From the NCBI GenBank assembly GCA_963666055.2, contig CAXWPH010000015.1:1248001-1312000 (forward strand): 64,000 bases of DNA. The letters are read 5' to 3'. The stretch's first letter is position 1. Each line of letters opens with the position of its first letter. The DNA is from Acidobacteriota bacterium (GTDB lineage Bacteria > Acidobacteriota > UBA890 > WLXD01). Position numbers and translations under genes: made by a program. The notes under the pieces were generated by a model, which saw only the letters and a list, made by a program, of their open reading frames with translations, searched no databases and had not been told where the DNA came from. Of the stretch, positions 4,454 through 48,921 are shown in pieces.

Positions 4454-6463
4454 CTAGTGATCCGGTTGGGCTAGTCCGGTAGGTAGCGCCACGGCGGCGA
4501 GCGAACCGGAGTGGGCCGGCCCGCCTATGGGCAGCACGATGTACTGCCTGCCCTCGTGCATGTAAGTCATCGGCGCGCTGTTGCTCTGCGCCGGGATATC
4601 CACCGTGCCGAGTCGCTCGCCGGTGAGCTTGTCGACCGCGTGCAACAGTGGAGCGCCGCGGCGGCCCTCGGCGTAGATGAGCAGTGTCTTGGTAATCACC
4701 TTGGTGGCGTGCGACGGCTTGCCGGTGTTGGGGATATCGAGGCCTTGCAGTGCCGGGTGATGGATAATCGACTCGGGTGTGTCGCCGTTGGGGATCCACC
4801 ACAGATGCTCGCCGGTGTTCAGATCGATCGCCGTGATACGACCGTAGGGCGGCTTGAGGTAGGGCAGTCCCTGGACCCGGCCAGGCCCGACGCTCGGTCC
4901 GCTCGCCCACGCCATGACTGTCTTGCCGATCGGGTTGGGATCGTTGGCATCTGCCTCGATGCCGGGGATCAGCGATTGCCCGGAGCAGGTCTTGGTAGAC
5001 GCGACGTAGAGGATCTGGGTCTGCGGGTCGACCGCTGCTCCTCCGGGGATGTTGGTGCCGCCGCCCCCACCGGGGCAGATCAATGAGGTCTTGAAGCCCA
5101 GGTTGTTGTCGCGGTGTAGCGGTGGGTTGAAGAGCGGGCCGAGCTGGAATTCGCTGAGCATCTCTACCGCCGCCTGCCGGAGCTCTGGCGTGAAGTCGAT
5201 CAGGTCGTCCTCGGTGACGCCCTGCATCTCGTACGCTGCCGGCCTCGTCGGGAACGGTTGCGTCGGCGATGTTTGCTCCCCGGGGATCTTCGACGACGGA
5301 ACCGGGCGCTCCTCGATCGGCCATACCGGCTCGCCGGTCTCACGGTTGAGCACGTAGGCGAAGCTCTGCTTGGTCGTCTGTACCAACGCCGGGATCTTCT
5401 TGCCGTCGACGGTGATGTCGACGAGGTTCGGCGCGGTGGGGTTGTCGTAGTTCCAGATGTCGTGATGCACGGTCTGGAAGTGCCAGCGGCGCTCACCCGT
5501 CTTGATGTCGACGGCGATGATGGAGGTGGCGAAGAGGTTGTCGCCGGGAGAGAAGCCGCCCCAGTAGTCGTTAGTCGGCGGATCGGTGACGAAGTAGACC
5601 AGCCCGAGCTCCGGGTCAGCGGCCATCGGTGCCCATGCCGAGACGTTGCCGGTGTACGACCAGGCATCGCTTTCCCAGGTGTCGTGGCCGAACTCGCCGG
5701 GCTGCGGGATAACGTTGAACTTCCACAGGTGATCGCCAGAACGCGCGTCGTACGCCAGCACGTGCCCGGGCACGTTCTCGCGTCGGGTCTGCCGGTAACC
5801 CTGCTCGTGCGAGTTGCCCACCACCACCACGTCGTTGACCACCATCGGCGGCGAGGAGTTGGTGATGTAGCCGGTTTCCGTGGGAAGCCCCTCGTAGGCG
5901 TCGTACTCGTAGCCGAGGTCGGCCAGCAGATCTACGGTGCCCTCGTTGCCGAACTGCTCGATTGGCTTTCCGGTGACGGCGTCGAGCGCGTGCAGGAAGA
6001 AGCCCGGCGAGATCATGTAGATCACACCGCGGCGGTCGATGTTGGCGTACCCGACGCCCTTGCCATAGTTCTTCCGCATCGAGTCTTCCCAGCGCGGCGT
6101 GTAGGGCTCGCGGTAGGTCCACAACGTCTCGCCGGTGGCCGGATCGATAGCGACGACCGTGCGCCGCTGACCGGCGACGGTGTACAGCACCCCGTTCGCG
6201 TAGGTCGGCGTGGAGCGCATGATGTTGTCCACCGAGGGGCCGTAGTTGTCGCCCCGCCACACCCAGGCGACCTCGAGATCCTCGAAGTTGTCGGCGTTGA
6301 TCTGGTCGAGCGGCGAGTAGCGTGTGCTGAAGGTATCGCCGCCCCAGTGGCGCCATTCGCCGTTCTCGGTACCAGTGCTCGATCCGCCGTTCTGACCGAC
6401 CGCAGGCATCGACATCAAGCACAGGGTGAGCGCAATCGCGGCGCCCATCGCAGGTTTCGTCAT
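4454..6463 (-). CDS. PQQ-dependent dehydrogenase (quinoprotein glucose dehydrogenase-like), periplasmic
   Basis: TRYSPLDQINADN, WHFQTVHHDIWNYD, SPTQPFP, KPPYGRITAIDL, PMTYMHEGRQYIV motifs; ATG 6463 overlaps upstream stop. Confidence 0.9.
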   Translation of the reverse strand: MTKPAMGAAIALTLCLMSMPAVGQNGGSSTGTENGEWRHWGGDTFSTRYSPLDQINADNFEDLEVAWVWRGDNYGPSVDNIMRSTPTYANGVLYTVAGQRRTVVAIDPATGETLWTYREPYTPRWEDSMRKNYGKGVGYANIDRRGVIYMISPGFFLHALDAVTGKPIEQFGNEGTVDLLADLGYEYDAYEGLPTETGYITNSSPPMVVNDVVVVGNSHEQGYRQTRRENVPGHVLAYDARSGDHLWKFNVIPQPGEFGHDTWESDAWSYTGNVSAWAPMAADPELGLVYFVTDPPTNDYWGGFSPGDNLFATSIIAVDIKTGERRWHFQTVHHDIWNYDNPTAPNLVDITVDGKKIPALVQTTKQSFAYVLNRETGEPVWPIEERPVPSSKIPGEQTSPTQPFPTRPAAYEMQGVTEDDLIDFTPELRQAAVEMLSEFQLGPLFNPPLHRDNNLGFKTSLICPGGGGGTNIPGGAAVDPQTQILYVASTKTCSGQSLIPGIEADANDPNPIGKTVMAWASGPSVGPGRVQGLPYLKPPYGRITAIDLNTGEHLWWIPNGDTPESIIHHPALQGLDIPNTGKPSHATKVITKTLLIYAEGRRGAPLLHAVDKLTGERLGTVDIPAQSNSAPMTYMHEGRQYIVLPIGGPAHSGSLAAVALPTGLAQPDH

Positions 6464-7344
6464 CGCATTCCACCTCCTGAAACGGACACCGGCACGTACC
6501 CATTCGTCCAGCAACATTGATCACCTGAACTGCTGTCGTTGGCAGCCCAGTTGTCCACCCGGACGCGAAGCACATAGTCGCCGGCTTCGCTGAACGTCGC
6601 GGTTGTAATCGCTTCGCCTATGCCCTCCTCCAACACGATCTCGCGATCCTCGAACACCACCGCGCCGGGGGGGCCTTGATGTTTGAACCAGGTCAGCTTC
6701 ACCGCGACACCATCCCTGTTCGCGGTGTCGTGGTCAAACCGTTCCGAGATCTCGCTAGCCCATACCGTCAGCGCTAGCGGGCTTCCCACCGTCGCGACCC
6801 GTGGCTGGTTCAGCCTGACACCCGTAGGGTGCTGGCCCTCCATCCCGTTGGGCTCAAGCCTCAATAGAGGTGGTACGGACCCCATACCCCGCGGTCCGTA
6901 GTCGAGCTGAAGGGCGTCGATTCCCACCCTTGCCGGCACCGAATAGGTCACGCCGTTGGCACGGATGGTCCACACAACTCGCCGCTCTCCATCTCCATAC
7001 GACGCTGGCACCGTCACCGTGAAAACACCCCTGTCTCGGCGTGGATCGACCGGGAAGTGCGTCGGCTGCTCACCATTGAACACGGCTGGTTCGACGAAGT
7101 TATCCGGCCCGATGGGAATCTCGAGTATCTCCTCCAAATTCAAGTTGAAGTACCCGAACGAGAACGTGTAGGTGCCGTCTGAGTTCGCGTACCAGCCTTC
7201 AAAGAACGGAGCTACCGGTTCGCCTGCTGGTGGTCGCGGCGCCAGCGGAAGCCGCTGCACCTGCTGTGCCCCGACAGGTGCCGAGCTCATGATGGCGGCG
7301 ATCAGCGCCAAGCAAGGACTGACCCGGAGCAGGCGGCCCTTCAT
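6460..7344 (-). CDS. Conserved secreted hypothetical protein with C-terminal Ig/PKD-like domain
   Basis: Signal peptide; PFFEGWYAN..FSFGYFN, QPTHF, FSEAGDYVLRV, QCCWTNGYV; ATGA overlaps at both ends. Confidence 0.8.
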   Translation of the reverse strand: MKGRLLRVSPCLALIAAIMSSAPVGAQQVQRLPLAPRPPAGEPVAPFFEGWYANSDGTYTFSFGYFNLNLEEILEIPIGPDNFVEPAVFNGEQPTHFPVDPRRDRGVFTVTVPASYGDGERRVVWTIRANGVTYSVPARVGIDALQLDYGPRGMGSVPPLLRLEPNGMEGQHPTGVRLNQPRVATVGSPLALTVWASEISERFDHDTANRDGVAVKLTWFKHQGPPGAVVFEDREIVLEEGIGEAITTATFSEAGDYVLRVRVDNWAANDSSSGDQCCWTNGYVPVSVSGGGMR

Positions 7345-8696
7345 CTCTGAGCTGCCACCTCTGCGTTTGCTTTCCTGTTGGCAACCTGTTGCTCGTAGCC
7401 CGCCTCGTCCAAGTGGGTTACCGCAAGCCAGGCGTGCGACATCTCGTCCATCGTACGGGCGCCTCGCGCATACCAGATTTCTGGATCGGGATTCAGCGGG
7501 TTGTTCTCCGTGTTGTCGTACCACGCGGTGATAACCAAGACGGTACCCGTGGGCAACAGCGGAGCCGCGTCGTCCTCATAGATATAACTGTGGTGCCATC
7601 TGGCGTTGAAGTTGGTCACCATGCTCAAGAGTTCCTGCGAGCCATCCGGATAGATCGCCCGCATGGATTTCGCATGAAGATGCACATGCCCGTGGGGCTG
7701 GAAGCTGTCGATGCGGACCGGATGATCCCAACGGTGGAAGCCCTGGGTCATCGCGGTTCCACCGGGTGCCAGGGCAATATCACCGTCCAGACGGTACATC
7801 GCCAGGTCTTGTGTGAACTCCGGCTCGTAGTCCTCGGGATATAACCAGAGGCCAAGCTCGATCTGATCGTCCTCGACGACATAGCCCATCGGGTAGTAAT
7901 GCACGTCCCATTCGATTAGCGCGTTCACCGGCAGCAAACGGGCTGCGTCTGACGGGATGATCTCGCCGATCTTGCCCATGGCATATTCCGAGAGCATCGC
8001 CGTCCGGACCCATTCACCATCCTCGTCCTGGGTCATTAATCTAGGGATGGCGTGGTGCACGACTTGACGGCCGGCGGGGAAGGAAGGCCGTATTTCGAAG
8101 GCCCGAATCAGCCTGTCCGCGTTGAGCCCCGTCTCCACTCTCGGACGCCACCAGATGTCGCCTCCCTCGGCCGGCACCGTATAGGGTCTCGACTCGATGA
8201 CGTGATCCGGCTCGCCCAGCTGGTCTTCGAGCTGCCACTTGTTGCCCTCCGGCCATTCCACCGGGGGCGGCATATCCGCCACGTCCCCCCTCGGCGTGCC
8301 GCTATCCACCCATGCGACGATGGTCTGGATCTGTTGCTCACTCAGCCTCCAGTCGTTCTTGATTGCCTGGATCCCGACACGTGTATCGAGGTGATACGGA
8401 GGCATTTCCCTGGCGGCCACCTGATCCTTGATCCGTGTTGCATAGCGTTTAGCCTGAGCATAGGTAAGAAGAGACATCGGCCCGACTGAGCCCGGCCGAT
8501 GGCAGATCTGACAGTTCTCCTGCAGAATCGGCGCCACGTCCCGAGTAAACGAGACAGCGTTTCCCTCGCCCGACACTGACTCATCGGACTGCTGCATCGA
8601 GAAAGCGTCGCCGCGGAAAGTCAGTAGGAAGAGGAGCGCTAACAGACAGGTCCCCAATAGCCCTGGATGCCTTGCGCGTGCCGATTTGTTGCCCAT
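7341..8696 (-). CDS. Cytochrome c fused to copper type II (PHM/DBH-like) monooxygenase-like domains
   Basis: Signal peptide; CQICH heme motif with distal MPP; VVHH, PHGH and DEM candidate Cu ligands. Confidence 0.75.
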   Translation of the reverse strand: MGNKSARARHPGLLGTCLLALLFLLTFRGDAFSMQQSDESVSGEGNAVSFTRDVAPILQENCQICHRPGSVGPMSLLTYAQAKRYATRIKDQVAAREMPPYHLDTRVGIQAIKNDWRLSEQQIQTIVAWVDSGTPRGDVADMPPPVEWPEGNKWQLEDQLGEPDHVIESRPYTVPAEGGDIWWRPRVETGLNADRLIRAFEIRPSFPAGRQVVHHAIPRLMTQDEDGEWVRTAMLSEYAMGKIGEIIPSDAARLLPVNALIEWDVHYYPMGYVVEDDQIELGLWLYPEDYEPEFTQDLAMYRLDGDIALAPGGTAMTQGFHRWDHPVRIDSFQPHGHVHLHAKSMRAIYPDGSQELLSMVTNFNARWHHSYIYEDDAAPLLPTGTVLVITAWYDNTENNPLNPDPEIWYARGARTMDEMSHAWLAVTHLDEAGYEQQVANRKANAEVAAQR

Positions 8697-8872
8697 GATG
8701 CGCCCTCCTGACAGAAAAGACTGGCGTCGCATTTTGGCCGCCCACGTGAAGCAGGCTAGATGTCGATCATCGCGACCGTCAAGGGACGTTGTAAAATCGC
8801 CGGGGTCGTGATACCGCTCGTTGTGGCAAATGGAAGGAACTGCAGTTTCAGGCTCGACGGATGGAGGGTGGC

Positions 8873-10420
8873 ATGAGCAAGCGAGACACGGGCGAAACAA
8901 ACGGTGCGGAGACCAAACTGAGTCGCCGGACCTTCGCAAAGACCTCGGTCGCCGCGGGTACCGCGGCTGTTGCCCTGCCTAACACGTTGCTCAGCGCGAC
9001 CCCGGCCAAGACCGCCGCGACGAAGGCAACCTACGGTCGCGCCGTCCGTGTCGAGATGCGGGACGAAGGCTTTGGATACGGCGGTAGGGGTGCGCCTCCC
9101 TTGACCGCCCCGGTCCCCCGCACCGCCAGCGTCAACGGCTGGAAAGAGGGCACCACGATTCCCGCCGAGTACTACTTGGACGCAAAGCACTTCGCCGCCG
9201 ACGAGGCGTTCGTGGCGGAGAACTTCTGGCAGTACACCGATCAGGCGAGCCGTATTCCGAATCCCGGCGATTTCTACGTGTTCGAGTTCGGGCGCTCCGA
9301 ATCTATTCTGATCGTCCGCGGACAGGACAACGAGATAAGAGGCTTCTACAACGTCTGCCGCCACCGTGGCTCGCGACTGTGCCGCCACGACGCGGATGCC
9401 AAACCGAGCGACCCGCGCCTGTCGGTCAAGCAACTTGGTCAGAGCGGTAGCTCACCGGTGTTCCGCTGCCCATACCACGCCTGGACGTACGACACCGAGG
9501 GCAGCCTCATCTACGCCTACGGCATGCAGGACGATTTCGACCCGGCGGACAACGGCCTGATTCCCTGCCACTTGCGGGTCGCCGAAGGCCAGGTTTTCGT
9601 CAATCTCTCGAAGTCGGACACGCCGCCGGACTTCGAGTCGGTTGCGAGCCGACTTGGTGCTCTGGCCGACAAGTGGAGCCTGAAGGATCTGAAGGTCGTG
9701 GCCCGTGAGTACTACCCGATCAACGCCAACTGGAAGCTGGCGCTGGAGAACTTCAAGGAGTGCTACCACTGCGGGGCAGCGCATCGACCGCTGGTAACGA
9801 CCCACAACTGGGACAACGACGTCACCGACGAGCAGAGGGCCGAAAGGGCCGCTGCGGTTGCCGCGTGGGTTCCAGAGAAGAACCGGCGGCGGCGGCAGCA
9901 GCCCGCATCAACCGGCATGGGTGGCGAAGGCATGGACGGCGAAGGCATGGACGGCGAAGGCATGGACGACACTCCCGCCTACGGGAGCATGGGCGGGTTG
10001 CTCAATCCCGGCTTCGTCACCGGGTCGATCGATGGCAAGCCCGTGTCGATACTGTTGCCCAACATCACGGAGTGGAACCATGAGACCGGCGGCACCACGA
10101 CATTCGAGTCGACGGGCTACTGGCAAACCTACGACGATCACGTTGCGGTAGCACGGTTCACGCCGCGATCGGAGAAGTTCACCGATTGCGAGATCGTCTG
10201 GTTAGTGCATCCCGATGCCGTCGAGGGTCGCGACTACGATCCCGACAACGTGAAGGCGCTGTGGCACGTCACCATCCAGGAGGACATCTGGATCACCGAC
10301 AACAATCACGCGGGCATCGAGTCTAGCGCCTACGCCGCTGGGCGCTACTCCACCCACGAGGGCGGCCCCTCCCGCTTCATCGACTGGTACATGAAGGAGG
10401 TCGTCAAGGTCGGGGACTAA
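8873..10420 (+). CDS. Rieske non-heme iron oxygenase alpha subunit (GbcA/choline monooxygenase-like) with Tat signal
   Basis: SRRTFAK twin-arginine motif; NVCRHRG...CPYHAWTY; NWKLALENFKECYHCGAAH; QEDIWIT; GGAGGG RBS before ATG 8873. Confidence 0.9.
   Translation: MSKRDTGETNGAETKLSRRTFAKTSVAAGTAAVALPNTLLSATPAKTAATKATYGRAVRVEMRDEGFGYGGRGAPPLTAPVPRTASVNGWKEGTTIPAEYYLDAKHFAADEAFVAENFWQYTDQASRIPNPGDFYVFEFGRSESILIVRGQDNEIRGFYNVCRHRGSRLCRHDADAKPSDPRLSVKQLGQSGSSPVFRCPYHAWTYDTEGSLIYAYGMQDDFDPADNGLIPCHLRVAEGQVFVNLSKSDTPPDFESVASRLGALADKWSLKDLKVVAREYYPINANWKLALENFKECYHCGAAHRPLVTTHNWDNDVTDEQRAERAAAVAAWVPEKNRRRRQQPASTGMGGEGMDGEGMDGEGMDDTPAYGSMGGLLNPGFVTGSIDGKPVSILLPNITEWNHETGGTTTFESTGYWQTYDDHVAVARFTPRSEKFTDCEIVWLVHPDAVEGRDYDPDNVKALWHVTIQEDIWITDNNHAGIESSAYAAGRYSTHEGGPSRFIDWYMKEVVKVGD
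9923..9967 (+). repeat. 3 x 15-bp perfect tandem repeat GGCGAAGGCATGGAC (GEGMD)
   Basis: Directly visible at 9923, 9938 and 9953. Confidence 0.95.
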
Positions 10421-10472: not shown

Positions 10473-11714
10473 GTGAGGCCAATCACGCGGGCGATCGCGA
10501 TTCTGCTGGTGCTGGCGTTGTCGGTTGCCTGTACGCCACAGCCGGCCTCCGAGCCCGCCGAAGCCACTGCGGAGCCGGGCTCCGACCAAGCCGAGCCAGC
10601 GGAAGGCGAGGAGCAGGGCGAGCCGGAAGTGGATCCTGAGCTGGCCATCATTCGGCTGGACCCGAACGACGAGAACCTCGAGGTGTGGAGAGATCGAGAC
10701 ATCTCGGACGATCCACCACGAGAGCCCGGACCGGTTGGAATCGGGGCGGCCCTGAGCTTCTTCCGGCTGCCCATCGCGGTGACCGTCGAGGACCTGATCG
10801 CTGGCGAAGTGGAGGTGGCGTTTATCGGAGCCCCGGTCGACATGGGGGTCGGCTATCGAGGCGCTGGCGAGGGACCCACCGCGATGCGCGCGCTCCGGCG
10901 CGGCGTCGGCAGCATGGAGACGATGATCAGCTGGAAGGAGGAGCTGAAGGCCGTGGACTACGGCAACGCGCCCATCGACAATCTGAGCGTCGAGCGCAGC
11001 ATGCCACCGATTCGGCGGATGGTTCGGGAGATCGCCGAGACGGGGGCGATTCCCATCATCATCGGCGGCGATCACTCCATCGAGTTCGCCAACGTTGCCG
11101 GGCTCGCCGACGTGTACGGCAAGGAGAACGTCGGCGTCATCCACTTCGATGCTCACTACGACGCCGGCGGCACGCGCAGCGGCCACCTGATCTCCCATGC
11201 CCAGCCGGTACGTCGGCTCGTCGACGACGGACACGTCCTCGGCCGGAACTTCATCCAGGTGGGCCTTCGGGGCGCCTGGCCGGGGGAGGCCGGATTCGAG
11301 TGGATGCGGGCCAACAACCTTCGCTACCACACGATGGCGGAGATCAATCGCGATGGTTGGGGGGCCGTCATGGAACGGGTTCTCGACGAGGCGAACGACG
11401 GGCCGGAGTACCTCCACATCTCCTTTGACATCGACGTCATGGACCCGGCGTACACCGAGGGAACAGGTACGCCGGTGCCGGGCGGCCTGATGCCCCGCGA
11501 GGTGTTCCCCCTCATCCGCGGCCTCTGCGCCGAGAACAACGTCGTTGGATTCGACCTGGTCGAGTTGAACCCTCTCCTCGACCCCGGCTACACGACCGTG
11601 CTCAACTCCAAACAAGTTGTCGACGAGTGCCTGACCGGGATTGCGATGAAGAAGCTAGGGCTCAGCGGCAGGGACTACCTGAGCCCGCTCACGGCGACCG
11701 ACGGCCGGCGGTAG
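10473..11714 (+). CDS. Agmatinase/ureohydrolase family lipoprotein
   Basis: Lipobox LSVAC; GGDHS, HFDAHYD, SFDIDVMDP, GTGTP motifs. Confidence 0.9.
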   Translation: MRPITRAIAILLVLALSVACTPQPASEPAEATAEPGSDQAEPAEGEEQGEPEVDPELAIIRLDPNDENLEVWRDRDISDDPPREPGPVGIGAALSFFRLPIAVTVEDLIAGEVEVAFIGAPVDMGVGYRGAGEGPTAMRALRRGVGSMETMISWKEELKAVDYGNAPIDNLSVERSMPPIRRMVREIAETGAIPIIIGGDHSIEFANVAGLADVYGKENVGVIHFDAHYDAGGTRSGHLISHAQPVRRLVDDGHVLGRNFIQVGLRGAWPGEAGFEWMRANNLRYHTMAEINRDGWGAVMERVLDEANDGPEYLHISFDIDVMDPAYTEGTGTPVPGGLMPREVFPLIRGLCAENNVVGFDLVELNPLLDPGYTTVLNSKQVVDECLTGIAMKKLGLSGRDYLSPLTATDGRR

Positions 11715-11794
11715 CAGGCCGAGTCGCGGGCCCGTCGCGAATGAGTGAGACGAGGTCGGAACCCTCGTCAGTTACTGACCCAGTGAGGCTCCAA

Positions 11795-13534
11795 ATGCAC
11801 CCGCAACGTGCCCTCATTTTTTCACTGACTCTGCTCACGACCCTCGTCTCTGTCGCCTGCAGCGATCCCGCCGATGAGACGACCCCCGCCACTCACGCGG
11901 ATTTGGTTGTCGTCAATGCCGACGTTCGTACCGTTGACCCAGCCATTCTTGCGGCAGAAGCGTTTGCCGTCGGAGATGGCCGGATTATCGCTATTGGCTC
12001 GACCGTCGAGATCGCTGCGCTCGCTGGCGACACAACCACGGTCGTCGACGCGGCTGGCTCAACGGTAATACCGGGTCTTGTCGACGGACATACTCACCTT
12101 GTTGGCGGCGCCGGGCTGGCCGTCGGTGTTGATCTGTCCGAAATAGAAGACAAGAGCGAATGGCTGCGCATCATTCGGGACAAAGCCCAAACTCTGCCCG
12201 ATGGCGCGTGGATCCTGGGCGGCGCCTGGGACCACAATCTCTCCGACGGTGTGTTGCCGACAAAGGAGATGCTCGACTCCGTCGCCCCCGACAACCCGGT
12301 GCTTCTCTGGGACATTGATCATCATTCGAGCTGGGCCAATAGCCTCGCCATAGAACTCGCCGGCGTGACGGCCGACAGCCCCGTGCCGACGGGCGGTCAA
12401 ATACTGGTCGACTCGACCACCGGTGAGCCCACCGGAGTGTTTCTCGAAACTGCAGCGGCGCTGTTCGACGATGCACCGGGCCTACAGGAAGCAGCGGACC
12501 CCGAAGCCGGAATCAGGGCGGCTGTGGCGCTTGCGAACAGCTATGGGATTACTAGCGTGCACGACATGAGCGGCAACCATGACGCGTTCCTGTCGGTCAT
12601 GAAGGATGGGGCTCTGACGGTACGAATCTGGCAGGGAGCGTTCTCAAACAATGCGAGCGCCGAGTCAGCCGTACAGTTTTTCCGCGATCTAGACGTCGAG
12701 AGAAGCCGGCTGCGGGAGACGATCGCGGAGTTCACTGGAACGAAGACAACCGGGCCGCTATTCGAGCTCGGCTATGTGAAACTGATGATCGATGGTGTTC
12801 TTTCTACGCACACCGCGTTGATGAAAGAACCGTACGCCGACAACCCGGAGGCGCAGGTCGAGCCATTCGTCAGTCGCCAGGATCTGGACACTATGGTGGC
12901 AGCGGCACACGACGCTGGCTTTCCGGTAGCAGTGCACGCCATAGGTGATGAGGGGGTGTCCTGGGTGCTGGATTCGTTCGCCGCGTCGCCGAGGCCGCCC
13001 GGTGTGCCGATAGATCGCGTCGAACACATAGAGGTCGTCACTCCTGATGATGTGCAGCGATTCAGCTCACTCGGTATAGCGGCCTCCATGCAGCCGCATC
13101 ACGCCACCTGCTGCGTCGGTAGCTACGTGGTCGATCGCATCGGCCCAGATCGCCTGCCGAATGCATATGTGTGGCGGCAAATGCTGGACAACAACATTCC
13201 CCTGGTGCTTGGGTCCGACTGGCCGACTTCTCCATTGAGTCCGCTGATCCAGATCGCCGATACGCTACACCGTGAAACCCAGATCGATGGTGCCGTTCGA
13301 CCGTGGGATGAGGGCAATAGGCTGACGTTTGAGGAAGCGCTGCACGGTTACACCCAAGCCGGCGCGAACATGACGGCCTGGGGCGATGAAATCGGCAGCA
13401 TTACCGTTGGCAAGTGGGCCGATTTCGTCATTCTCGATGAGTTGCTATCCGCTGAGGCCGACCGCAGCATCGAGAATCGCCGGGTGACGGCAACCTACCT
13501 CGCCGGCCGGCAGGTCTATCCGAGAGACCCATAG
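11795..13534 (+). CDS. Amidohydrolase 3 (YtcJ-like), lipoprotein
   Basis: PGLVDGHTH, KLMIDG, HAIGD, RVEHIE, GSDWP, GSITVGKWADF; lipobox VSVAC. Confidence 0.9.
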   Translation: MHPQRALIFSLTLLTTLVSVACSDPADETTPATHADLVVVNADVRTVDPAILAAEAFAVGDGRIIAIGSTVEIAALAGDTTTVVDAAGSTVIPGLVDGHTHLVGGAGLAVGVDLSEIEDKSEWLRIIRDKAQTLPDGAWILGGAWDHNLSDGVLPTKEMLDSVAPDNPVLLWDIDHHSSWANSLAIELAGVTADSPVPTGGQILVDSTTGEPTGVFLETAAALFDDAPGLQEAADPEAGIRAAVALANSYGITSVHDMSGNHDAFLSVMKDGALTVRIWQGAFSNNASAESAVQFFRDLDVERSRLRETIAEFTGTKTTGPLFELGYVKLMIDGVLSTHTALMKEPYADNPEAQVEPFVSRQDLDTMVAAAHDAGFPVAVHAIGDEGVSWVLDSFAASPRPPGVPIDRVEHIEVVTPDDVQRFSSLGIAASMQPHHATCCVGSYVVDRIGPDRLPNAYVWRQMLDNNIPLVLGSDWPTSPLSPLIQIADTLHRETQIDGAVRPWDEGNRLTFEEALHGYTQAGANMTAWGDEIGSITVGKWADFVILDELLSAEADRSIENRRVTATYLAGRQVYPRDP

Positions 13535-46692: not shown

Positions 46693-48921
46693 CTAGTCGT
46701 CTATCCCGAAGGCCAGTAGCACATTGCCCGGTGTATTGCCGAAAAGCCCGTACCCGGATCCCAGGTACATCATCCCATCGACGATCGTTGGGGAGGTGGC
46801 ACCAATTGCGCCGCCGAAGGCCGGCACTTCGTTAACGGCTTCGTAGGTTCGTTTCGTCGTGTATTCCCAGAGAATCTCGCCGTCCGCCTTTGAATATGCA
46901 TGGAGTGTCCCTTGGGACGAGCCGGTGATTACCGCGCCGGGCACTGCGGTTGCCGCCGCCGTATAACCCGAGGAGCAAGCGTTCCAACCCGACAGGTTGC
47001 AGTCCTCCAGCCCCGGCAGTTCCCTGTACCAGACGCGCTCGCCCGTCGTCACCCGCAACGCCGCAACGGCCCCGCTCGCGTCCCGGTAGTTCAGTGGACG
47101 ATAGAAGAGCTCGCCGTCTGACGCCCCGCCCCAACCCGCGCCGTTAGGAGCAAGCCGGTCGCCGGCCTGGGCCACCCAGAGAACTGCCCCGTCGTTGTCA
47201 GGATCCAAAGCCGTGATGCGGCCGCTCTCCTGTACGCCCAGCAGCACTCTGCGACCGTTCGGCAGGTCGAGCAGAATCGCCTGGTTGACGTCGTCGCCCG
47301 GGCCCTGAATGTAGCCAGGGCAATTGACCAGACGCTCGGGACCTCGCCCGCAGCCACCTTCGTCTCGATCCGAGGACGCCGGAAGGAGGTTGGTCATCCA
47401 CAACCGTCGGCCGGTATCCATGTCGATGGCCAGTATCGAGCCGCAGGCGCCGCCGTCGAAGGACACGTTGCCGACACCGAAGTGCTCAGTGATGTTGCAG
47501 TTGCCGGTGGGCGCATAGATGGCGCGCCGTTTTTCGTCGATCGTGAGCGAGCTCCAGATGCCGGCGCCGGCTGGTCCGAACAGCGGCGTGCCGGCCGAGT
47601 TCGTCTTGTTGAGTGGCCGAGGCCGTTCTGGAAAAGAGTACGTTTGCCAGACCTTCTCCCCGGTCTTCACGTCGACGGCCACGACGCTACCCTGGAACGT
47701 GCAGCACTCGTACTCGACATAGGAACCAGGCTGCTCTTCCCACGACGCGACCGGCACATACAGGCGCTCGCCTGAGGAATCGAGCCTGACTGCGGATGTG
47801 ATCTTCGCCTGTGGATGATCGTCGGCGCGCAGGGTCCACATCTCTTGCCCCGTCTCGGCGTTGACGCCGTACACGACCCCGCTCATGTCGCCGAAATACG
47901 CGCCATAGCGGACCCCCGGTACATCATCGACCGGGCCGACCTTGACGGCGCCCCGGACCGCCGTCTGCGCGCGGTACGACCAGTGAACGCAGCCCGTCTT
48001 GGCGTCGAGCGCATACACGAAGAAGTTATCGCTCGTCAGGAACAGTGCACCGCCCACCACGCTGGGTTGCGACCAGTTGGCGACCGAGGCATCCGGGATG
48101 GCGAAAACCCACTTCAGCTTCAGCCGCGGGAGGTCCTCCGCGGTGATGCCGCCGACCGCCTCCGACGCGAACCGATGCACACCGAGCTCGGGATCCCAAC
48201 CGTTCCAACTCGGCTGGTTCTCCCAGTTGTCCAGGTTTATGGACTCTGCACACTGGTTCGGCATGGCCGCCGCCTCGCGGTGGGCAACGCCGCCGAACGG
48301 CTTGCCAGTCACGAGCTCGATGACGGCACGCTTGTACTCTTCGTTGCCGAAGATCCGGAAGCGATCACTCTCGTCATGTGCCGCGATCGGCCGGTTCAAC
48401 ACTGCCAGGAGCTCGTCGGCTTCCATCTGCTGAATATCGAACCGTGAGGGCATGTTGGCGGCAGCGGTCCCGCCCGAAACGGGGCGACCGACAGGTGAAT
48501 TGTCGTGGCAGACCGCACACCCGTTTTCGAACACACCGACCATCCTTGCAGGATAGACGGTGCGGTCGACCGAGCCACCGAGAGGCTTGCCGGTCACCAG
48601 TTCTGCCATTGCCCGTAGCTCGTCGTCCCGGAACTCGGATGTGAACTCCACCATGGGCCCTTCCATCAGGGCAATGAGCACCTGCTCTGGCTCCATCTGT
48701 CGAAGCGCCTCCCGAGTGGGTGCCAGGATCTCGTCGCTCTGATTGTCATGACAGTCGGCACAGATCGCTTCATACGTCGCCACCATGCTGGCGGCAGAGG
48801 CCATGGCCTTCGGGCCCGGCACATCTTGAGCCTGGACGGGCGAAGTAAGGAGCTGCGTCGTCAATGCGCACACAGCCACGATCACCGTCACCGCGCTCAT
48901 GGTTAGTACTCGTCTCAGCAT
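46693..48921 (-). CDS. Quinohemoprotein PQQ dehydrogenase (polyvinyl alcohol dehydrogenase-like) with two c-heme motifs
   Basis: CADCH and CAVCH; LKLKWVF, GCVHWSY, ECCTFQGSV, GPAGAGIWS, YLGSGY, GNVLLAF. Confidence 0.88.
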   Translation of the reverse strand: MLRRVLTMSAVTVIVAVCALTTQLLTSPVQAQDVPGPKAMASAASMVATYEAICADCHDNQSDEILAPTREALRQMEPEQVLIALMEGPMVEFTSEFRDDELRAMAELVTGKPLGGSVDRTVYPARMVGVFENGCAVCHDNSPVGRPVSGGTAAANMPSRFDIQQMEADELLAVLNRPIAAHDESDRFRIFGNEEYKRAVIELVTGKPFGGVAHREAAAMPNQCAESINLDNWENQPSWNGWDPELGVHRFASEAVGGITAEDLPRLKLKWVFAIPDASVANWSQPSVVGGALFLTSDNFFVYALDAKTGCVHWSYRAQTAVRGAVKVGPVDDVPGVRYGAYFGDMSGVVYGVNAETGQEMWTLRADDHPQAKITSAVRLDSSGERLYVPVASWEEQPGSYVEYECCTFQGSVVAVDVKTGEKVWQTYSFPERPRPLNKTNSAGTPLFGPAGAGIWSSLTIDEKRRAIYAPTGNCNITEHFGVGNVSFDGGACGSILAIDMDTGRRLWMTNLLPASSDRDEGGCGRGPERLVNCPGYIQGPGDDVNQAILLDLPNGRRVLLGVQESGRITALDPDNDGAVLWVAQAGDRLAPNGAGWGGASDGELFYRPLNYRDASGAVAALRVTTGERVWYRELPGLEDCNLSGWNACSSGYTAAATAVPGAVITGSSQGTLHAYSKADGEILWEYTTKRTYEAVNEVPAFGGAIGATSPTIVDGMMYLGSGYGLFGNTPGNVLLAFGIDD

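Follow-up and report, generated by a model that had tools for sequence, protein, structure and literature searches.

P0001 and P0002, two adjacent genes, would together encode a periplasmic two-subunit heme-copper monooxygenase in which electrons enter via the heme and which hydroxylates a small substrate, a reading to which we give a probability of roughly 60%. The bacterial family of putative heme-fused copper monooxygenases to which P0001 belongs is uncharacterised and is a variant of the PHM/DBH-type enzymes. A search of the open-access literature and of preprints without their supplements found no paper on this family or on the Asn-type quinoprotein clade described below, and the accessible part of PMC2938197 names PHM just as an example of the fold.

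Gene organisation of the locus

The window, that is, the whole 64,000-nucleotide stretch of DNA analysed, carries three consecutive genes on the reverse strand, to which all coordinates of their features given here refer. P0001 (7341..8696, 451 amino acids) encodes a likely signal peptide followed by a monoheme cytochrome c and a PHM/DBH-type two-domain copper core, P0002 (6460..7344, 294 amino acids) a likely exported protein with two beta-sandwich domains and the predicted second subunit, and P0003 (4454..6463, 669 amino acids) a PQQ-family beta-propeller, likely exported, whose relatives are the glucose/quinate dehydrogenases. ATGA stop/start overlaps, read from the sequence, join P0001 to P0002 (7341..7344) and P0002 to P0003 (6460..6463). 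The 451-residue reading frame, both overlaps and the CQICH, VVHH, PHGH and DEM motifs had all been described in an earlier note on this DNA and were confirmed in the sequence. An AGGAGG lies 5' of the P0001 ATG, a Shine-Dalgarno-like sequence precedes each of the 3 genes, and a Sec leader can be recognised by eye in each product.

The exact ATGA overlap is a local feature, being found at 1 of 60 enzyme-partner junctions in related loci, and many of the 60 abut or share 1 nucleotide (start codons assigned by a simple heuristic). Promoter-like (1) and terminator-like (2) matches at the locus were no more than expected by chance. A divergent Rieske oxygenase gene (8861-10420) was considered as a part of the unit and rejected, with a homologue at 0 of 80 related loci. 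The nearest named relatives come from Acidobacteriota genome bins, with 85% and 75% identity. Searches of GenBank phages gave no match to P0001, and those of plasmids gave a single weak partial match to P0001 and none to P0002.

P0001 has an N-terminal cytochrome c domain

The likely Sec signal peptide of P0001, assigned by eye, spans about residues 1-33 (8598..8696), and model confidence (pLDDT) is low over residues 1-42. It is followed by a cytochrome c domain (residues 46-136; 8289..8561), which is identified by weak Pfam cytochrome matches, a structure match and residue invariance, and which contains the CQICH heme motif (residues 62-66; 8499-8513) and, at an invariant position, the likely heme axial ligand Met98 within EMPP (8403-8405). 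C62, C65, H66 and M98 are kept in 137 of 137 diverse homologues. This N-terminal domain is helical in the AlphaFold2 model, and VIA-align superposed it on the monoheme PccH (4rlr) with a middling score (Z 7.8, rmsd 2.0 over 75 residues), so that the fused c-type heme domain proposed in the earlier note is borne out, as a class I c-type cytochrome, by the invariant CxxCH and downstream Met together with the fold. The residues present suggest that the heme is likely a His/Met-ligated monoheme of the c type. Two PF01578 genes for cytochrome c maturation are present in the genome.

P0001 carries a predicted PHM/DBH-type copper core

The copper core stayed invisible when Pfam, NCBIfam and the PDB were searched with the single sequence or its close family, the single-sequence searches returning only a weak cytochrome c signal; the core was revealed only by a diverse-homologue profile and a structure model. 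The profile, which contains 137 sequences, matched human DBH (E = 4e-10) and rat PHM (E = 2.5e-5), with its HH, VHY, HxH and EM segments in register with the copper-ligand motifs of both enzymes, accounting for six ligands. The first copper domain (about residues 163-286; 7839..8210), delimited by this register and by structure matches, contains the CuH-type ligands H214 and H215 of VVHH (residues 212-215; 8052-8057) and H266 of DVHY (7899-7901). The second (about residues 293-430; 7407..7820) contains the CuM-type ligands H335 and H337 of PHGH (residues 334-337; 7686-7694) and M419 of DEM (residues 417-419; 7440-7442), as well as the subtype residues Q333, H421 and W423 discussed below. The motifs listed earlier thus stand, the list having missed the likely axial M98 and the third CuH ligand, H266.

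The CuH ligands H214, H215 and H266 are kept in 136, 135 and 136 of the 137 diverse homologues, and the CuM ligands H335, H337 and M419 in 137, 137 and 134, respectively. All ten heme and copper ligands are intact together in 133 of these 137 sequences, and none of the ten positions varies in 120 of 120 close homologues; because of this invariance we do not regard the motifs as the product of chance. With such a ligand set, P0001 would be expected to bind the corresponding metals.

The AlphaFold2 model of P0001 (pLDDT 90.9, pTM 0.86) shows the helical domain followed by two beta domains. Its best Foldseek match was PHM 1sdw (E = 1.3e-12, target-normalised TM 0.60), and through rank 31 the matches were exclusively to PHM or DBH, with a loose fit to PHM (rmsd of about 5 Å, 12-14% identity). 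VIA-align gave a Z of 18.9 against PHM 1sdw (rmsd 3.5 over 249 residues) and of 16.4 against DBH, the next unrelated chain scoring 8.0. Structure prediction, one of the checks suggested in the earlier note, therefore returned the PHM-like fold proposed there, with both sets of copper ligands, so that the fold survived the refuting condition set for it in that note. Another of the checks, a search with the Pfam models Cu2_monooxygen and Cu2_monoox_C, gave a partial answer, since neither model matched P0001 itself and, among 51 homologues, 5 passed the cut-off of Cu2_monoox_C and none that of the N-terminal model. Superposition on the known enzymes suggests that the two copper sites of P0001 would be separate and face each other across a cleft. 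The copper core contains no cysteines, and it is consequently without disulfides. P0001 has the fold and the ligands of the superfamily, yet it is neither PHM nor DBH.

P0002 is a near-obligate partner of the enzyme

A P0002 homologue adjoins the enzyme in 75 of 80 related GTDB loci, which are not independent of one another and whose enzymes share 47-85% identity with P0001. Of the 5 loci without one, 4 run into a contig edge shortly downstream. Within this genome, a P0002-type gene lies beside 6 of 6 close-subtype paralogues, one copy being truncated. Moreover, enzyme and partner occur as a natural single chain in six fusions of three arrangements, with the partner N-terminal to the enzyme (P0395, P0396 and P0259), with the enzyme first (P0254 and P0258) or with the enzyme within the partner (P0264), and the linkers of all six are without a second leader.

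The predicted P0001-P0002 complex, computed with the heme included, scored 0.83, compared with 0.00 for the best control, and so passed a mark that is reached by 116 of 157 solved pairs and by 2 of 215 mismatched ones; for this complex, these counts are only a rough guide. Runs agreed in at least 87% of contacts, with a partner pLDDT of at least 91. A profile search for solved relatives of P0002 found none, which makes it unlikely that the complex passed by memorisation. On the enzyme side, the modelled interface comprises residues 178-186, 305-318 and 403-417, which lie in both copper domains and take in the loop that precedes M419; on the partner side, it extends up to residue 276, next to two cysteines. 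The model thus supports binding of P0001 to P0002, and we consider P0002 a near-obligate partner of the P0001 enzyme, with an association that is probably physical.

The two cysteines belong to a QCCW motif (6508-6519) that is invariant in the aligned homologues (106 of 106 sequences) and retained by 84 of 87 neighbours; of the three exceptions, one is truncated, one is divergent and the third ends aberrantly. The structure model of P0002 shows two beta-sandwich domains, of which the second resembles Ig/PKD domains at a middling Z, in agreement with the Ig-like middle protein of the earlier note, which had nonetheless underrated the weight of this gene, given its near-obligate association across loci, fusions and the predicted complex. 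The N-terminal domain had no clear structural match among the matches listed, which the C-terminal domain dominates.

The conserved cysteines also bear on the possibility that the pair is a copper/heme protein and not a C-H hydroxylase, whether it serves as an oxidase, in the handling of peroxide or nitrite, in electron transfer or in copper handling; the vicinal cysteines of the partner would then form a copper or redox site. The motif is nearly universal among the neighbours, residues 269-276 directly before it contact the enzyme in the model, redoxin domains are fused to other subtypes of the P0001 family, and there is a precedent for a copper nitrite reductase with a fused heme c (PDB 3ZBM, as given in the accessible portion of bioRxiv 10.64898/2026.07.10.737718). 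However, the exact ligand set of non-coupled CuH and CuM sites is conserved, and the subtype-specific substrate-site residues across the 11 paralogues of this genome suggest substrate discrimination, so that we rate this possibility as very improbable.

Substrate-site residues distinguish a subtype within a large family

In the profile alignments, Q333 takes the place of the PHM Arg that precedes the CuM His-x-His, a position where DBH likewise has Gln, and H421 and W423 take the places of the PHM Asn and Tyr after the Met. We take these PHM residues, Arg, Asn and Tyr, to be the binders of the peptide C-terminus. Gln stands at the Arg position in 119 of 120 close homologues. Q333, H421 and W423, together with E237, K242 and E245, hardly vary among the 120 closest homologues, and in a FastTree tree of representatives, rooted at the midpoint and without a clade test, they set one subtype apart. 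Since the peptide-binding Arg of PHM is Gln here, as in DBH, peptide amidation is disfavoured.

A bacterial PAM would hydroxylate a C-terminal glycine or an N-acylglycine, with a PAL-like NHL protein finishing the amidation. PHM is indeed the closest structure to P0001, NHL-repeat proteins are encoded near some of the related loci (L069 and L127), as are peptidases and amidases. Nevertheless, besides the near-complete replacement of the carboxylate-binding Arg among close homologues, no NHL gene was identified near the pair in the window, and none is a recurrent immediate neighbour across the 80 loci, which leaves such a function quite improbable. Our guess is instead that the enzyme would act on a small, amine- or amide-bearing substrate rather than on peptidylglycine, because of the DBH-like site, the partner fusions and the C-N hydrolases among the neighbours. 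Partners are found fused to amidohydrolase, alpha/beta-hydrolase and cupin domains, and in one case to three RidA-like domains; the neighbours, whose annotation was scanned for 36 and 44 of 97 neighbour clusters, include an amidase, amidohydrolases and peptidases among many unrelated housekeeping genes.

The family is large. A search of proteins clustered at 50% yielded 12,573 representatives at E ≤0.001 and 1,036 at E ≤1e-30, and members were found at E ≤1e-20 in 64 of the 301 phylum genomes, a tally that takes in one unpublished genome (G024). Of the 11 full-length copies in this genome alone, six belong to this subtype and four to a second one, and the last is a long fusion. The four second-subtype copies have another partner, and the P0002-type partner is absent from 5 of the 11 paralogues, those of the more distant subtypes.

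P0003 is a putative Asn-type quinoprotein with an optional link to the pair

P0003 is a PF01011 propeller (605 bits, E = 1.9e-181) without a membrane anchor, and its nearest family is that of the glucose/quinate dehydrogenases (TIGR03074; 356 bits, cut-off 833). A Trp and a Lys segment align with this family, and we presume them to be the PQQ-stacking Trp and the family Lys. Alignment with XoxF places Asn338 (5450-5452) at the position of the catalytic Asp, HHDIWNYD of P0003 standing opposite PHDEWDYD of XoxF 6dam. The accessible part of bioRxiv 10.1101/2020.02.25.964783 gives this Asp, the first WD Asp, as D303 in MxaF and D299 in XoxF, and that of PMC10975547 also describes a catalytic Asp. 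WN (Asn) was found in 28 of 28 readable P0003-like matches from the best 30 loci, and four annotated plasmid-borne relatives retain WD (Asp).

P0003, two proteins from related loci (L013 and L014) and ten Gemmatimonadota proteins form a WN clade (support 1.0), and each is encoded beside an enzyme-partner pair. The departures of this clade comprise the change of Asp to Asn, the loss of the GGxNW Trp and a Cys pair plus a His near the C-terminus. Its sister gene also precedes an enzyme-partner pair in this genome, and further pair-adjacent relatives were found in G134, with the gene order seen here, G258 and G055, all three regions having been chosen because their coordinates hinted at adjacency. 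Outside this genus, 3 of 48 strong enzyme loci have a P0003 match within 6 kb, compared with about 0.4 expected (a hand count over the best three P0003 matches per genome). Across the 80 loci, a PQQ-family gene lies within 6 kb in 17 and none does in 63; a member of the P0003 clade does so in 12, and the close relatives always belong to that one clade. At the level of genomes, a P0003 match below 1e-150 was present in 23 of the 23 with a P0001 match below 1e-100 and in 17 of the other 278 among the 301 of the phylum, a comparison made over four families whose kin are not independent; for that reason, a Fisher test on this co-occurrence was set aside. A P0003-like match was also present in 49 of 50 genomes drawn from the 80 loci. 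On the other hand, a P0003 paralogue with 91% identity on contig C7 has no monooxygenase adjoining it, and close relatives occur in genomes without a P0001 match (G039, G153, G255 and G157). The link of P0003 to the enzyme-partner pair is real but optional.

A supply of PQQ was sought in the host. None of the 11 family genomes, this one among them, yielded pqqC, with 13 of 301 phylum genomes over the cut-off as the control; the gene was present in 2 of the 23 genomes with a strong P0001 match and in 2 of the 50 genomes from the enzyme loci. Scores for pqqE and pqqB in this genome were under the cut-off, the E. coli PqqU importer yielded two weak fragments only, and a loose pqqA-like pattern matched nothing in it. 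Two PqqD-like matches belong to other loci, a pqqB-like gene lies outside any pqq cluster, and none of them was retained. The probability of PQQ use is thereby lowered only in part, since completeness of the genome is 95.7% and bacteria that scavenge PQQ are common, Acidobacteria and Gemmatimonadetes among them, according to the accessible text of PMC12124388; uptake by diffusion is one possible route.

These observations bear on the claim of the earlier note that the PQQ enzyme recharges the heme, and on the reading that follows from it, in which P0003 is an ordinary PQQ dehydrogenase that acts on sugars or alcohols and serves as the dedicated electron source of the fused heme. In favour of it are the overlaps that join all three genes, the occurrence of the clade beside the pair in varied orders and lineages (this genus, L014, the ten Gemmatimonadota loci, G134, G258 and G055), the genome-level co-occurrence and the commonness of PQQ scavenging. 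However, P0003 and every readable top match have Asn in place of the catalytic Asp, clade members accompany so few of the loci, the gene also occurs apart from any monooxygenase, in the paralogue on C7 and in genomes without a P0001 match, and pqqC was rare or absent in the genomes surveyed and a PqqU homologue missing here. The gene link in that claim holds, dedicated recharging is weakened and the reading as a whole appears doubtful; P0003 is only a possible electron source for the heme.

Alternatively, the Asn-type propeller may be a different enzyme, for instance a C-N dehydrogenase without a catalytic base or a carrier of another quinone, that shares an amine-degrading or cofactor-making pathway with the monooxygenase. 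The well-supported clade with several altered active-site segments, the co-occurrence with the enzyme in genomes mostly without pqqC and the partners fused to three RidA-like domains or to an amidohydrolase would fit with this, but kinship and large paralogue expansions confound the co-occurrence and the propeller is also found without the enzyme, so that we consider it unlikely. We also raise, as a tentative idea with the odds clearly against it, that a heterodimeric, self-wired heme-copper monooxygenase and a base-less Asn-type quinoprotein constitute an undescribed periplasmic system for joint amine breakdown or the making of a quinone cofactor.

Proposed mechanism and implications

For the two-subunit heme-copper monooxygenase, we propose that P0002 would dock across both copper domains, shaping or capping the catalytic domains. 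A periplasmic donor would reduce the His/Met heme of P0001, and the heme would pass electrons on to CuH and then to CuM, a path suggested by the heme fusion and by the CcPDH-LPMO precedent described below. By analogy with PHM and DBH, CuM would bind O2 and hydroxylate a C-H bond of the small substrate. Electrons would thus enter through the fused heme in place of ascorbate, a substitution that we find plausible. A fixed donor is unlikely: the Asn-type quinoprotein would be favoured as a companion without being required, and each of the many cytochrome-reducing dehydrogenases of the genome could serve as an alternative.

PHM and DBH are eukaryotic, disulfide-rich and hard to express, and how electrons cross from CuH to CuM in them is a long-running question. 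With a bacterial core that is free of disulfides and a built-in heme that can be followed spectroscopically, this transfer would become open to direct testing. The observation is real, and the proposed enzyme is uncharacterised and experimentally tractable; in practice, co-expression with the partner is advisable, and one should not presume the neighbouring quinoprotein to be an ordinary dehydrogenase. The size of the family, both in representatives and in copies per genome as seen here, points to unrecognised periplasmic oxidation chemistry. If the undescribed system existed as outlined, it would be the counterpart of the PHM/DBH family in prokaryotes, possibly its ancestral form, and would draw electrons from a natural protein donor, and in its cofactor-making version the monooxygenase would help supply the quinone for about twenty "PQQ" enzymes in bacteria lacking PQQ genes.

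Comparison with known systems

With PHM, the catalytic core of PAM (1SDW, 1PHM and 1OPM), P0001 shares the two jelly-roll domains, the His-His-His/His-His-Met register and likely export. It differs in the added monoheme cytochrome c and the separate or fused partner subunit, in a copper core without disulfides, and in Gln, His and Trp for the Arg, Asn and Tyr of PHM, at 12-14% identity. DBH (4ZEL), which is the best profile match, and tyramine beta-monooxygenase share with P0001 the Gln before the CuM His-x-His and an extra N-terminal domain, but that of P0001 is cytochrome c-like and not DOMON, and there is no dimerisation domain. P0003, in turn, shares PF01011 and the aligned Trp and Lys segment with the membrane-bound PQQ glucose/quinate/shikimate dehydrogenases of TIGR03074, from which it differs in having no anchor, in the Asn for the catalytic Asp and in a host without recognisable pqqC, pqqE or PqqU. 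Finally, CcPDH drives LPMOs through a chain from PQQ dehydrogenase to cytochrome domain to copper monooxygenase, as described in the accessible part of PMC5960967, which is the type of chain that the earlier note had proposed for PQQ, heme and copper at this locus. The folds of that system (AA12, AA8 heme b and monocopper LPMO) are unrelated to those of P0001 and P0003, and its heme is carried by the dehydrogenase, whereas in P0001 it is carried by the monooxygenase.

Variants of the enzyme, its partner and their neighbours

In three family members, the gene at L127:5973-7403 (a related locus from a GTDB genome) and the homologous proteins P0279 and P0260, the Met segment of the CuM site reads NM or AM, not EM. 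The partner protein encoded at L127 is without the CC motif, and despite this its gene still lies upstream of an Asn-type propeller. Within the source genome, the partner gene of a 76%-identical paralogue (C14:538593-539033) ends after 146 codons, with a stop codon that shares bases with the beginning of the gene downstream; the partner orthologue at the related locus L130 is intact and fused with three RidA/YjgF-like domains.

Another 4 copies of the heme-copper enzyme (C15:1061476-1063543, C6:428372-430356 and C7:211249-215173) make up a second subtype, and their partner, which differs from the P0002 type, has 230-270 aa and is likely a lipoprotein. A further copy of 659 aa (C6:392838-394817) has a long additional stretch at its N-terminus and in this is similar to the redoxin fusions found among homologues.

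The window also encodes, on the forward strand, a Rieske oxygenase alpha subunit (8861-10420) with a Tat-like leader (SRRTF), for which GbcA was the closest NCBIfam model, under the cut-off. Its family is greatly expanded in this genome (22 matches in a whole-genome tblastn search); a Rieske oxygenase family with apparent export is unusual. Arginase/agmatinase-family and amidohydrolase-3 genes follow downstream on the same strand (10473-13534), and both products have lipoprotein-like leaders.

Possible electron sources and quinone supply

By eye, we recognised a quinohemoprotein amine dehydrogenase-like cluster (C15:1167303-1170840) comprising a gamma-subunit-like peptide, a radical SAM protein with a PqqD-like domain and a heme alpha subunit, which could possibly be a periplasmic electron source not needing PQQ. 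The whole genome contains about 21 long PQQ-family dehydrogenase genes, and the window itself encodes a 742-aa fusion of a diheme cytochrome c with a PQQ-family propeller (46693-48921, reverse strand). Searches of the whole genome found no pqqC, no pqqE match above the cut-off and no PqqU homologue. This combination is reminiscent of the NCBIfam 'acido-empty-quinoprotein' group.
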